Positions 1 to 25,810 of a stretch of DNA of 42,851 nucleotides are shown here, piece by piece; position 1 is the first letter of the stretch; each line of letters begins with the position of its first letter. The position numbers and the translations under genes were made by a program. The notes under the pieces are model-generated. The model was not told the DNA's origin, ran no database searches, and saw only the letters and a program-made list of their open reading frames with translations. Source of the stretch: a virus (Duplodnaviria > Heunggongvirae > Uroviricota > Caudoviricetes); IMG/VR virus record IMGVR_UViG_2875722834_000006; one strand, written 5' to 3'.

Positions 1-321
1 CTACATTACAGGCGATTTATCGTCTTTAACTTGGTTAAGTGTATGTGTAAGAACGCCGTGTACCGTTACGTCATTCAGAGCTTCCCCTTCTATCGCTTCA
101 CCATCTTCAGTGATCAGCGCGTGGCCCATTAGCTTCACGAACTGGTTTCTCCCGTCCATGCTAACCAGCAGCGTATCCCCTCCTTCTGGCTTCAGACTGA
201 CGTTAATAACGGCCCAGCCGCATGAAGTTTCAATAACCCGGCAGTTGTTATCTACACCGCAGATAACATCTATCGTCATGCGCTGCTCCTGGTAATCCAT
301 GGCTGGCGATGGAAATCCCAT
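1..321 (-). CDS. Hypothetical protein (106 aa), no family recognised
   Basis: Complete ORF; GGAGG-like RBS about 8 nt upstream of ATG at 321; stop at window edge. Confidence 0.4.
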   Translation of the reverse strand: MGFPSPAMDYQEQRMTIDVICGVDNNCRVIETSCGWAVINVSLKPEGGDTLLVSMDGRNQFVKLMGHALITEDGEAIEGEALNDVTVHGVLTHTLNQVKDDKSPVM

Positions 322-407
322 TAGAAAACCCTCCCCATGTTTCGCAGGATCCAGTATCGATTCTCACTTCCGTTTGTCGTCTTATCGGCGAAGTCCGGCT
401 GGTACCG

Positions 408-560
408 CTAGATCCATGAATTTGCATCCGCCTGGCTGAAATGCCAGTGCCTCTCCTGCAGTTCAGCGATAAATTTGTCTGTATGCAGGCAGAGATAGCC
501 CTTCGGGTTTTGCTGTATGACCGCAACAAAAGCAGCACGAATATCCGGTTGACGAGGCAT
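408..560 (-). CDS. Hypothetical small protein (50 aa; longer 78-aa alternative start at 644)
   Basis: ATG at 560 preceded by GAGGG RBS (568-572); sits immediately beside the LexA box. Confidence 0.3.
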   Translation of the reverse strand: MPRQPDIRAAFVAVIQQNPKGYLCLHTDKFIAELQERHWHFSQADANSWI

Positions 561-581
561 GTGCGCACCCTCACTCGCTAA

Positions 582-610
582 TTGACTGTATACACATACA
601 GTAGTATTTT
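582..610 (+). promoter_or_regulatory. SOS (LexA) box CTGTATACACATACAG (586-601) overlapping a sigma70-like promoter (TTGACT 582-587, TATTTT 605-610) upstream of the dinI-like gene
   Basis: Exact CTGT-N8-ACAG LexA consensus; 17-bp spacer between -35 and -10 hexamers; lies between divergent genes. Confidence 0.6.
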
Positions 611-660
611 TATAAAAACAGATCAAGCACAGGCAATTTTTCACTAATGAGAGGATCGGT

Positions 661-927
661 ATGTTTGTTGAACTCGTTTATGACAAGCGTAATGTTGAGG
701 GGCTCGAGGGGGCCAGAGAGATCATACTGGCCGAGCTGACGAAGCGGGTGCACCAGATTTTCCCTGATGCCGAAGTGAAGGTGAAGCCGATGCAGGCGAA
801 CGGCTTGAATAGCGATGCCAGCAAAAGCGATCGTGAAAAACTGAACCACATGCTGGAGGAAATGTTTGAAGAATCCGATATGTGGTTGGTTTCTGAGTTC
901 CCGACTGTTCGCCAAGCCGGGCTGTAA
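661..927 (+). CDS. dinI: DinI-family SOS-inducible protein
   Basis: 88-aa product aligns by eye with E. coli DinI (conserved FPD motif and acidic C-terminus ending in W-VSE); RBS GAGAGGA upstream; LexA box upstream. Confidence 0.75.
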   Translation: MFVELVYDKRNVEGLEGAREIILAELTKRVHQIFPDAEVKVKPMQANGLNSDASKSDREKLNHMLEEMFEESDMWLVSEFPTVRQAGL

Positions 928-970
928 AATGGTTCAGGCTGCCAGCTTCAATATTCACTGGCGGCCTGCA

Positions 971-1531
971 TTATGTCTTACCACTACCTACCGGAAATTT
1001 TCGGTAGAGTGTTGAAACCCCTACGTCGTAAATTATTGCCACACGCTGGCGAGATTCCCCTGCTGAGATCAATCTCCCTGCCTGCGCCCATTGTTCATCC
1101 GTTAATTTGGGCCTGCGACCGCCGAACCGCCCTTTTGCTCGCGCAGCTGCTAAACCCGCCCGGGTGCGTTCAACAATGAGCTCTCTTTCCATTTCTGCCA
1201 AAGCCCCCATAACATGAAAGAAGAATCGGCCCATCGGCGTAGACGTGTCTATGCTGTCGGTCAGGCTGCGAAAATTAATGCCCCGCTCTCGCAGCTCCTC
1301 CACAAGAACGACAAGATGCCGCATGCTTCTACCGAGCCGATCGAGTTTCCAGACCACCAGCGTGTCTCCCTCCGACAAGATACGGAGTACCTTTTTGAGC
1401 CCCGGCCTCTCCGATGTCTTTCCGCTTATCTTATCTTCAAAAATCAGTTCACATTCTGCGCTATCGAGCGCATTTCTCTGTAATGCGGTGTTCTGGTCAT
1501 TTGTTGACACTCTCACGTAACCAATAAGCAT
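971..1531 (-). CDS. Serine recombinase, DNA invertase of Hin/Gin/Pin/Cin family
   Basis: 186-aa product starting MLIGYVRVSTNDQ with LVVWKLDRLGRS and C-terminal HTH (GVSTLYR), near-identical motif order to Hin; start moved to internal ATG at 1531. Confidence 0.85.
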   Translation of the reverse strand: MLIGYVRVSTNDQNTALQRNALDSAECELIFEDKISGKTSERPGLKKVLRILSEGDTLVVWKLDRLGRSMRHLVVLVEELRERGINFRSLTDSIDTSTPMGRFFFHVMGALAEMERELIVERTRAGLAAARAKGRFGGRRPKLTDEQWAQAGRLISAGESRQRVAIIYDVGVSTLYRKFPVGSGKT

Positions 1532-1600
1532 TGTTTTATCCCCTGCAAAAAGCAGAAAGCATGCCACTAGTGAGCAGAATGGTCATTATCAAAAACGTTC

Positions 1601-2017
1601 CTATATTGGCATCTCAGGCCAGACAGGGTTGGCTGAGTCAACCTTTGTCAATGCATAGCGATATTTCTGCCACGCCGTGAGTTTTGGCTTATCTGCATCA
1701 TCAATATAGTCACCATCAAAAGCATCCTTAAGTGGGTCAATAATATGTGTTGCATATGCGATAAGAGATGATTTTTTTGACACCGCATCTGCTTCAAGTT
1801 CTTCTGGCGTACGTGGTGGTATTTCACCCCATGTTGGCATGCCGTCATTGCCTGCGATGCGCACTAATCCATCAACGGTTCGATCCTGAGTGAACGCAGT
1901 AAATTGCTCAGTAGTTACGTCAATCAGGTCAGACAGATCCCAACCCGCATCTTCATAATTCCCCAGCTCAGCAGTACGGAAAAATGCATTGTTCTTAGCG
2001 CTGTATTGATATGTCAT
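1601..2017 (-). CDS. tfa: Tail fibre assembly protein (P2 gpG / Mu U-like chaperone)
   Basis: C-terminus VDSANPVWPEMPI matches the conserved tail-fibre-assembly C-terminal motif; start taken at MTYQYSAKNNAFF (ATG 2015-2017) directly after the fibre stop. Confidence 0.75.
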   Translation of the reverse strand: MTYQYSAKNNAFFRTAELGNYEDAGWDLSDLIDVTTEQFTAFTQDRTVDGLVRIAGNDGMPTWGEIPPRTPEELEADAVSKKSSLIAYATHIIDPLKDAFDGDYIDDADKPKLTAWQKYRYALTKVDSANPVWPEMPI

Positions 2018-2018
2018 C

Positions 2019-2936
2019 TTATTTTCCCCAGGCAATGTAATAAACATCTTCACTGAATGGTTGGATACCACCAGAGCCACCCCAGCACCGACCATCAAAA
2101 CCAAAACCCGCCTTATTAAGGTACGTGACATAGGGAGAGAACATCCAGGCTTGGCCAATCATTACGCCGAATGCAATGGCAGTACATTCGTTGGGGAACG
2201 GGGTATCAAATAATTTATCACCGGACAGAGAGACCTTGCCGGTTCTTACATGGCCTGTTGCTGCATTGCCCATCCCAAGATTATTTCTGGCCGTGGCTGC
2301 ATCGTTCGCACCAGTACCGCCTTGCTGAACCCCCAATGGTACGAATTTTGCGCCGTCAAAAAGCCCCCACTGATTATCTTCGCGTGCTGTAAAATATGCA
2401 GTTTTTTTATCGTCGCAATAAATTACCGTTTCACCTGCCCGCTGCTCAACTCTGCCAAGGCCAAGATTAGTCCTTGCTCCTGCTGCATTACCTGCACCTG
2501 TTCCACCCTGATTAATACCCAAGGGGATAAAACCTTTCGTAGTGTCATAAATGCCCCACTGACCATCAATCCTGATGGCAAGATAAGAGGAGTGATCGTC
2601 CCCGGAATAAATTCTCGTTTCGTTATTTAACTGCTCCACCCTGTCAATTCCAAGGTTTGTGAGAGCCGTAGAAATCGCCGCTGCACCATCTGATTTGATA
2701 TCGGCAAATGGGTTTGCACGGCTCAGTGTGAGTTTTTGAATGGCTTTTAAAACCTGAGTCATATCGTTAATGTCGAGCGCCAATCCTGCTGACTCTACGA
2801 TATGCGCTAACTCTTCCTGCATGGCATTAAACGCTGCTGCCCGCAGCCTCGTTGCGGCAATACCACCAGCAACACTTCCATCAGTATATTTGCCATCCTG
2901 CGTTGCAGTGGCTTCGACTTGCCCGATTCGGAGCAT
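2019..2936 (-). CDS. Tail fibre protein (305 aa)
   Basis: Two internal copies of the tail-fibre repeat (P)LG(I/V)xQGGTGA..AA.AR.NLG; GAGGA RBS upstream of ATG at 2936; followed by tfa. Confidence 0.8.
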   Translation of the reverse strand: MLRIGQVEATATQDGKYTDGSVAGGIAATRLRAAAFNAMQEELAHIVESAGLALDINDMTQVLKAIQKLTLSRANPFADIKSDGAAAISTALTNLGIDRVEQLNNETRIYSGDDHSSYLAIRIDGQWGIYDTTKGFIPLGINQGGTGAGNAAGARTNLGLGRVEQRAGETVIYCDDKKTAYFTAREDNQWGLFDGAKFVPLGVQQGGTGANDAATARNNLGMGNAATGHVRTGKVSLSGDKLFDTPFPNECTAIAFGVMIGQAWMFSPYVTYLNKAGFGFDGRCWGGSGGIQPFSEDVYYIAWGK

Positions 2937-2987
2937 AGTTAATCCTCACTTAGTGTTAAGCGATAAAATCAGAGGGGGAAATATCAG

Positions 2988-24587: not shown

Positions 24588-25640
24588 TTATTCCCCTGTT
24601 AACGCCCTTATTTCCCCCACCGTCTGGCTAAACCTGTCCTTCTCGAGTTCAACGCCGATAGCCTGGCGGCCAAGTTCCAGCGCGATTTTCACGGTCGAAC
24701 CGGACCCCATAAAGAAATCAGCCACCACATCACCAGGCTTACTGCTGGCGTTGATGATCTGCCGCAACATGTCAGCGGGTTTTTCGCATGGGTGTTTACC
24801 TGGGTAAAACTGAACGGGTTTATGTGTCCAGACGTCGGTATAAGGAACGGATACGGAAACAGAGAAATGCCGCCGAAGCGATTTGTACTCTTCGAGCAGC
24901 TCTGAATACTTGCGATTTAACGAATGCCACATAGCCACCAGCTGGTGGTGTGGTGTTGCCAGTTCGCCGTTCTGGTGCTTTTCGATGGCTACCTGCGTGA
25001 AAAGGGACTGAAGCTTCCGGTAGTCTGATTCATTCGGTAATTGCCACTGGCTACCGCTGAACCAGTGAGACACCATGTTCTTCTTTCCAGTCGCATCGGC
25101 TATTTGTTTTGAGGTTATGCCAAGCGCTTCACGTGCATCCCGGAAATAAGAAATTAGGGGAGTCATTACATGCTGCTTCAGCTCGCTTCCCTTCTCAGCG
25201 TACCCGTCGCTCTTTGGTTTATACGGCCCCTGGTAATGCTCAGCGAACAGGATGCGCTCTGTTGCAGGGAAGTAAGAGCGCAGGCTCTCTTTATTACAGC
25301 CATTCCAGCGGCCCGACGGTTTAGCCCAGATGATGTGGTTCAGGACGTTGAACCGCTCACGCATCATGATCTCAATGTCTGCCGCCAGACGGTGACCTGA
25401 GAAAAGATAAAGACTGCCGGCAGGTTTAAGCACTCGCCAGAATTGTGCGAGGCACATATCAAGCCAGCGAAGATAATCCTCATCCCCTTTCCATTGATTG
25501 TCCCAGCCGTTGGGTTTCACTTTGAAGTACGGCGGATCCGTGACTATCAGGTCAATGAAGTTATCAGGGAGAGTTGCGATGTATTGCAGGCTATCAGCGT
25601 TGACTAACTCAACACTGTTTATATTTACAGTATTTTTCAT
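24588..25640 (-). CDS. DNA N6-adenine (or N4-cytosine) methyltransferase, beta class
   Basis: DPPY motif near N-terminus (VTDPPYF) and AdoMet motif FxGxG near C-terminus (DFFMGSGST). Confidence 0.8.
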   Translation of the reverse strand: MKNTVNINSVELVNADSLQYIATLPDNFIDLIVTDPPYFKVKPNGWDNQWKGDEDYLRWLDMCLAQFWRVLKPAGSLYLFSGHRLAADIEIMMRERFNVLNHIIWAKPSGRWNGCNKESLRSYFPATERILFAEHYQGPYKPKSDGYAEKGSELKQHVMTPLISYFRDAREALGITSKQIADATGKKNMVSHWFSGSQWQLPNESDYRKLQSLFTQVAIEKHQNGELATPHHQLVAMWHSLNRKYSELLEEYKSLRRHFSVSVSVPYTDVWTHKPVQFYPGKHPCEKPADMLRQIINASSKPGDVVADFFMGSGSTVKIALELGRQAIGVELEKDRFSQTVGEIRALTGE

Positions 25641-25810
25641 AGATCCGTAAGCGTAACTCTGATAGGCTCACTATGCTTTTGCGCTAAAGCAGTGGGCCTT
25701 GGTTAGCTTGTGACCTGTAAGCATGAGCTGATGGTTGGTCGGGTGCTACAACACCCACCAGCCGCCCATTCCACAGCAAAACTCCTCCATATTGAAGGAA
25801 CGAAGGCGTA

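Follow-up and report, generated by a model that had tools for sequence, protein, structure and literature searches.

In the temperate enterobacterial phage phiKO2 (GenBank AY374448), a 'lexA; binding site' and overlapping -10 signals are annotated between the divergent genes 22 and 23, which code for a DinI-like and a UmuD'-like protein, respectively. The phiKO2 box is perfect (TACTGTATGCATATACAGTA), with a core, CTGTATGCATATACAG, that is the same as in mEp390 and Flotzy, and a 'putative bidirectional' terminator is annotated past the dinI gene. The genome of P1 (GenBank AF234172) has an annotated 'LexA binding site in the regulatory region of lxr and humD'. Here too, two divergent genes have one box in common; the product of one of them is a pre-truncated UmuD' homologue, and no umuC is adjacent. 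In N15, a box, TACTGTATAAAAAAACAGTT, is found 15 nt before the ATG of gene 26. P1 HumD was reportedly established as a functional UmuD' homologue by McLenigan et al. in 1999. A related gene set is present on another mobile element, the plasmid TP110, whose SOS-controlled impCAB genes encode the DinI-like ImpC, the UmuD-like ImpA and the UmuC-like ImpB. One LexA box common to two divergent genes is also known from uvrA and ssb in Escherichia coli and Salmonella (PMC8072944). Experimental data are available for the dinI homologues of Gifsy-1, -2 and -3, which have LexA boxes, are repressed by the host LexA and are induced by mitomycin C and nalidixic acid. When the LexA-box region of Gifsy-2 was exchanged for an arabinose-inducible promoter, the damage-dependent activation of a lytic-gene (recE-lacZ) reporter of this prophage was abolished (Lemire et al. 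2011, PMC3121763; Merida-Floriano et al. 2021, PMC8072944).

Here, we describe a locus of this kind in a stretch of viral DNA of 42,851 nucleotides, which is referred to as the window. A dinI-like gene and a divergent unit, consisting of orf79 and a umuD'-like gene, are located on either side of a predicted LexA box (Table 1). We consider it likely that a pair of divergent sigma-70 promoters, which overlap each other, is controlled by a single operator for the host LexA protein at the cargo end of this lambdoid/Mu-tailed prophage, which is integrated at tRNA-Pro.

As in phiKO2, the dinI/umuD' pair adjoins the tail genes of a temperate enterobacterial phage, and phiKO2 Gp22 is 58% identical to the window's DinI. 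However, in phiKO2 the box and umuD' are not separated by an orf79, and its UmuD' is of the 127-aa HumD type, whereas that of the window is a compact 106-aa variant. The phiKO2 box is 14 nt from the dinI start, while in the window the distances are 57 nt to dinI and 23 nt to orf79. Furthermore, phiKO2 is a linear plasmid prophage, unlike the tRNA-Pro-integrated prophage described here. Its annotated terminator may be compared with the hairpin at 935..968 of the window. P1 differs in that the divergent partner is lxr instead of dinI and in that orf79 is absent, and its HumD is 28% identical to the 106-aa protein over the full length (E = 8e-11). The dinI coding DNA of Gifsy-2 is ~90% identical to that of the window; however, the Gifsy dinI is the first gene of an operon that also encodes a small antirepressor, the trigger of induction, whereas the dinI-like gene of the window is probably monocistronic and followed by a convergent invertase gene. 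The Gifsy box is located 19 nt from the dinI ATG, in upstream DNA unrelated to that of the window. The chromosomal uvrA-ssb and umuDC loci are housekeeping SOS genes, with no homology to the window outside the box. The impCAB genes, unlike the genes of the window, form a co-directional single operon in which a umuC homologue is present and the UmuD homologue is full-length and needs cleavage.

Table 1. Coordinates of the features at the dinI/umuD' end of the prophage
Feature	Position	Strand	Details
Compact UmuD'/HumD-like gene, 106 aa	1..321	-	phrog_3469; Shine-Dalgarno GGGGAGGG 329..336
orf79 pseudogene	321..560	-	79-80-codon frame, TAG at 408..410; Shine-Dalgarno GAGGG 568..572
Predicted LexA (SOS) box	20-mer 584..603; 16-bp core CTGT-N8-ACAG 586..601		Sequence, weight-matrix score, conservation
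Predicted sigma-70 promoter of the dinI-like gene	582..610	+	-35 TTGACT 582-587, 17-nt spacer 588-604, -10 TATTTT 605-610
Predicted promoter of the orf79/umuD'-like operon	598..626	-	-35 TTGATC 626..621, 17-nt spacer, -10 TACTGT 603..598
dinI-like gene, 88 aa	661..927	+	Pfam, phrog_189; Shine-Dalgarno GAGAGGA 649..655
GC-rich hairpin	935..968		Between the convergent dinI-like and invertase genes

Prophage setting

Five complete E. coli chromosomes match the first kilobase of the window with 100% identity, and some match to it was found in 42 of 5,426 complete genomes. In E. coli ECONIH4, the locus is located ~105 bp from tRNA-Pro, beside yejM. The window is bounded by the stop codons of the umuD'-like gene and the integrase gene and is thus a whole prophage. 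The early genes are lambdoid and code for a CI-like repressor of the LexA family (self-cleaving type), a Cro-like protein, Q and Ant. The tail genes are Mu/SfV-like and contractile, and include an invertible tail-fibre segment with a Pin-like invertase. The module of dinI, orf79 and the umuD'-like gene occupies the site typical of cargo genes, with the attachment site on one side and the tail-fibre end on the other, and an equal position is seen in mEp390, HK140, Flotzy, Eeyore, HK225 and LLS.

The invertase gene (971..1567, minus strand) encodes a Pin/Gin-type serine invertase (Resolvase and HTH_7) and is located beside the tail-fibre and tail-fibre-assembly genes at 1580..2940, the whole being an invertible host-range segment of the Mu/e14/P1 type. 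The ECONIH4 copy has a second, inverted and partial set of tail-fibre/assembly genes. The two prophages differ by ~763 nt between positions 1000 and 24600 of the window, possibly within the invertible segment, and also at their integrase ends. Searches of the whole window with Rfam (gathering thresholds) and for tRNAs returned no matches.

A predicted LexA box overlapping two predicted divergent promoters

The core of the box is CTGTATACACATACAG (586..601), a CTGT-N8-ACAG palindrome with an AT-rich centre, and with its flanks (GACTGTATACACATACAGTA, 584..603) the box matches the consensus TACTGTATATATATACAGTA at 17 of 20 positions. The bare CTGT-N8-ACAG pattern occurs twice in the 42.8-kb window, compared with an expectation of 0.52, a count that is weak when taken alone, at least two matches having been obtained in 12 of 100 shuffles. 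The complete 20-mer was scored with a symmetrised 20-nt weight matrix, which is approximate and was derived from 24 LexA operators of E. coli known from the literature. The box reaches 22.9 bits, compared with 19.2 bits for the best of 200 shuffles of the window and a median of 11.4, and this score is in the upper third of those of the 24 operators used for the matrix (range 12.9-27.3).

LexA bound at or beside promoter elements excludes RNA polymerase. The box covers nearly all of the spacer of the predicted dinI promoter as well as the final two bases of its -35 element, and rightward transcription would start near 617. In the other direction, the right arm of the box forms the -10 element, TACTGT, of the sequence TTGATC-17-TACTGT, which we infer to be the promoter of the leftward operon, with a start near 591. 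This promoter was overlooked by the promoter scan because TACTGT fits just three of the six -10 positions. The two predicted -10 hexamers are adjacent to each other (598..603 on the minus strand and 605..610 on the plus strand), and the predicted starts are ~26 bp apart. A further candidate for the main leftward promoter, TTGCCT-16-TATAAA, was rejected, as it is not conserved in mEp390 or HK140.

These observations agree with a preliminary description of the same DNA, in which CTGTATACACATACAG had been recognised as a fit to CTGT-N8-ACAG and placed in the TTGACT/TATTTT spacer upstream of the dinI-like gene, an overlap that was recovered by the independent promoter scan. That description had also placed a minus-strand ribosome-binding site 15 nt from the box, where GAGGG is found ~14 nt away, and had proposed that the box is common to the dinI-like gene and a divergent two-gene unit, a proposal that is supported here. 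The location that it had assigned to the locus, at a prophage end, holds as well: the locus is situated between the attachment site (tRNA-Pro) and the tail-fibre/invertase genes.

The rightward gene encodes a DinI family protein

DinI is a modulator of RecA filaments. The dinI-like identity first suggested for the product of 661..927 is corroborated by a match to the DinI family PF06183 (79.5 bits against a Pfam cut-off of 24.2, E = 2.4e-22). The protein also matches phrog_189, 'RecA filament binding protein DinI', and it possesses the acidic C-terminal helix of the family, its C-terminus being LEEMFEESDMWLVSE. The score with the NCBIfam equivalog model for chromosomal DinI is below the cut-off (41 vs 111). 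The protein is best classified as a member of the DinI family without being a chromosomal DinI equivalog.

The hairpin downstream of the dinI-like gene has a minimum free energy of -24.8 kcal/mol (z = -3.7), none of 200 shuffles folding as well, and there is no clear T-run on the plus strand. It may act as a bidirectional terminator, and the dinI transcript would probably end at this hairpin, ahead of the convergent invertase gene.

The leftward unit contains an interrupted, predicted winged-helix gene and a compact UmuD'-like gene

The first leftward gene, orf79, starts with an ATG at 560..558. ORF 408..560, previously taken for an intact gene, comprises the first 50 codons of the orf79 frame, in which Glu51 (GAG) is changed to TAG (CTC to CTA on the plus strand). 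At the identical locus of E. coli, a pseudogene with an 'internal stop' is annotated by NCBI's PGAP. The 50-aa fragment matches phrog_3893 (E = 2e-22) over profile positions 1-50 of 79, and orf79 is intact (79 aa) in seven of seven phage/prophage relatives examined, the HK225 variant being longer. The lost C-terminus holds the family-invariant W-I-x-x-Y-Q and YWILRNMGR positions. ORF 408..560 is best viewed as a nonsense-truncated allele rather than an intact gene, and orf79 appears to be non-functional in this prophage. The preliminary description had also referred to the leftward genes as an unknown two-gene operon. Two leftward genes are indeed present, and they can be identified as a member of the phrog_3893 family, winged-helix-like by prediction, followed by a UmuD'/HumD-like gene.

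An AF2 model of the intact orf79 family (pLDDT 89.6) predicts a winged helix with H-strand-H-H-strand-strand topology, a recognition helix and a wing. Neither the 50-aa ORF nor intact orf79 has an accepted match in Pfam, NCBIfam or PADLOC; the only Pfam hit is DUF7669, with an E-value of 0.039, below the cut-off. The profile made from the orf79 alignment gave noise only when compared with PDB sequences. A function of orf79 as a Gifsy/N15-type antirepressor is not supported: N15 is absent among the best 40 of 41 phage records matching orf79, and the presence of a LexA-family CI-like repressor in the prophage was counted against it.

The ATG of the umuD'-like gene overlaps the orf79 stop codon (TAATG). 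Its product matches phrog_3469, 'UmuD-like', with an E-value of 8e-48. The N-terminus, MGFPSPAMDY, aligns with MGFPSPAADY of P1 HumD, and the start is equivalent to Gly25 of UmuD, just past the cleavage site; the 106-aa protein has a pre-truncated start, without the N-terminal cleavable arm. With the NCBIfam HumD model (NF051876), the cut-off was not reached (33.6 bits vs 120) and the N-terminal 63 residues alone match. No match to Pfam Peptidase_S24 was obtained for the 106-aa protein, and PADLOC returned nothing. Its AF2 model is of moderate quality (pLDDT 64.6), and Foldseek ranks the LexA C-domain, UmuD' and the lambda CI C-domain highest (E = 3e-3 to 1e-2, TM 0.5-0.6). The predicted product is a compact UmuD'/HumD-like protein that belongs to a separate 106-aa family, phrog_3469, and not to HumD in the strict sense.

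The ribosome-binding site of the umuD'-like gene is only 87 nt beyond the premature orf79 stop. Because this site is retained despite the orf79 nonsense codon, the UmuD'-like protein is likely still made, and the gene is probably expressed in spite of the truncation. The nonsense codon may lower its expression by polarity, and the leftward arm may be decaying in this prophage.

Conservation of the box and alternative explanations

The box is present in all eight E. coli phage/prophage copies that were aligned, with CTGTAT and ATACAG invariant. The invariant columns are ATTGACTGTAT, TACAGT and GTATTTTT, whereas the centre of the box (ACAC, GCAT, ATGA, ACAT, GTAT and others) and its flanks vary, and there is little conservation from the box to the orf79 start. 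Both hexamers of the dinI promoter are likewise invariant among the eight copies. Six more distant phages of Klebsiella, Enterobacter and E. coli, in which orf79 is just 40-60% identical, dinI is absent and the upstream DNA is otherwise unalignable, all have TACTGT-N8-ACAGT(A/G) about 18-20 nt before the orf79 ATG. The boxes of the Klebsiella phages, TACTGTATATAAAAACAGTG, are a one-base variant of the E. coli umuDC operator.

A survey of contigs from one genome per bacterial species found 27 orf79 loci, in Enterobacter, Citrobacter, Leclercia, Lelliottia, Kosakonia, Huaxiibacter, Erwinia, Superficieibacter and others. A strict box, with the contact bases conserved, is located 14-24 nt upstream of orf79 in 19 of these, compared with a chance expectation of ~0.2 loci. 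At least four further loci (L024, L029, L042 and L047) have a one-base variant of the box, and in L026 half a box is visible where the contig end interrupts it. Just two of the 27 loci are without a box, and both are differently arranged or match orf79 partially. LexA control does not appear to be universal in the orf79 family, as the box is mutated in L024, L029 and L042. The promoter sequence TTGATC-17-TACTGT is kept upstream of orf79 in the Klebsiella, Enterobacter and E. coli phages and in most of the 27 loci, with differing spacer sequences. The conservation of the box in homologous and in distantly related loci is the decisive evidence, and argues that the box is no chance match.

A divergent dinI is found in seven of the 27 loci. 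Only in these dinI-bearing loci is the box 23-24 nt from orf79 and does it end with ACAGTCAA, which on the other strand provides the -35 element TTGACT of dinI, with TATTTT 17 nt further on. TTGACT-17-TATTTT is kept in every dinI-bearing locus, even at 63% DinI identity. On the most economical reading of this distribution, the orf79-umuD' operon has long carried the box, which belongs primarily to it, and dinI joined later on the other side, in one sub-lineage, with a promoter built around the existing operator.

In the 20 loci without dinI, the box serves the orf79 operon alone, and the window might similarly contain a real LexA operator that controls one unit only: either orf79/umuD', with dinI using a different promoter, or dinI, the leftward genes then being read from elsewhere, for example by late-operon read-through. 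Such read-through is conceivable in view of the common orientation of the leftward genes and the tail and invertase genes, and the leftward promoter is a prediction with a weak -10 element. Nevertheless, control of one unit is improbable: in every locus with both genes the two hexamer pairs are kept together with the box, each predicted promoter is physically overlapped by it, and the phiKO2 and P1 annotations give one site for both divergent genes.

It is considerably less probable that the palindrome is mainly the operator of a phage-encoded regulator, for instance for autorepression by orf79, and that its resemblance to a LexA site is secondary. In P1, N15 and phiKO2, none of which is among the best 40 of the 41 phage records matching orf79, humD-type genes follow the same box, and the invariant bases are exactly those contacted by LexA. 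These facts stand against an orf79 operator even though orf79 is always the first gene past the palindrome and its family is confidently predicted to adopt the winged-helix fold, a common DNA-binding fold. Least credible of all is a chance palindrome or a non-functional relic, with expression constitutive or silent regardless of SOS; the bare pattern count is not significant and one of the controlled genes is already a pseudogene, but the full 20-mer scores above all 200 shuffles, at least five E. coli genomes have the box and the two promoters intact and without a sequence difference, and the family-wide conservation is far above chance.

Additional LexA-like sites

A second LexA-box-like site is present at 25613..25632 on the minus strand (TACTGTAAATATAAACAGTG), with a score of 23.7 bits, slightly above that of the box described above. 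It overlaps codons 3-9 of a gene for a 350-aa DPPY-motif DNA methyltransferase (24588..25640, minus strand), which is located past Q and ahead of the lysis genes. The site is retained in SfV, in phiP27 (as CTGT-N8-CCAG) and in the Hafnia phage yong2, a conservation that may stem from coding constraint or from LexA binding. Upstream of the methyltransferase gene, ~140 nt of non-coding DNA (25641..25785, minus strand) are highly conserved in SfV, phiP27, Stx phages and the Hafnia phage yong2. This segment has no Rfam match and folds no better than shuffles (z = -1.3); it may represent the late-promoter/qut region downstream of Q.

Another LexA-like box, CACTGTTTGCATATACAGTC (18.7 bits), is found in Flotzy (locus L004, 2776..2795) and Eeyore (locus L006, 1276..1295). 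It is situated between the integrase gene and the attP core derived from tRNA-Pro, ~60 nt from the integrase stop codon and ~55 nt from the core. A corresponding position would fall beyond the end of the window, whose last codon is the integrase stop, and the integrase end of ECONIH4 has no such box. HK140, Eeyore and the MEI4O1-23 prophage share with the window a CTGG-N8-CCAG palindrome within orf79 (430..449, GCCTGGCTGAAATGCCAGTG). As a LexA site it has a poor score, and coding constraint probably explains why it is conserved.

Proposed regulation and implications

We propose that in the undamaged cell a LexA dimer bound at 586..601 would cover the spacer and the -35 edge of the rightward dinI promoter and, likewise, the -10 element and start region of the leftward promoter. 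Because one dimer would cover both promoters, both units would be silent in the lysogen. Upon DNA damage, RecA filaments would trigger the self-cleavage of LexA and both promoters would open, leading to the production of a DinI-type modulator of RecA filaments and of a UmuD' mimic. Because its start is equivalent to Gly25 of UmuD, the latter may not require RecA-mediated processing. In the prophage studied here, orf79, the first leftward gene, would be inactivated by the nonsense mutation, while the umuD'-like gene would keep its ribosome-binding site. The functions assigned to the two proteins, modulation of RecA filaments and cleavage-free mimicry of UmuD', are predicted from established family knowledge. 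Direct SOS control of the prophage cargo is supported by strong comparative evidence, by the annotated precedents in phiKO2 and P1 and by the experimental precedent of the dinI homologues (PMC3121763, PMC8072944).

A more speculative idea, which we put forward tentatively and regard as rather doubtful, is that orf79 and the 106-aa 'mini-UmuD'' form a distinct two-protein module of temperate enterobacterial phages, almost always behind a LexA box, whose role goes beyond the substitution of UmuD'. For instance, an SOS-induced regulator might be combined with a decoy that binds RecA filaments or UmuC, and the pair may tune host mutagenesis or prophage induction.

The principle of LexA-controlled cargo is already documented by phiKO2, P1, N15 and the Gifsy phages, and the gain is small in this respect. 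The modest additions concern three points: the orf79 winged-helix family accompanies a compact UmuD' variant as an apparently near-obligate partner gated by LexA, there is evidence that dinI took over an operator already in place, and orf79 is a pseudogene in this prophage lineage. On the comparative evidence, the prophage appears to tie accessory genes directly to the SOS circuit of the host, apart from its own CI-type switch. A damaged lysogen would gain a modulator of RecA filaments together with a ready-made UmuD' mimic, and translesion synthesis, mutation rates or the timing of the SOS response could shift in E. coli strains carrying such prophages.
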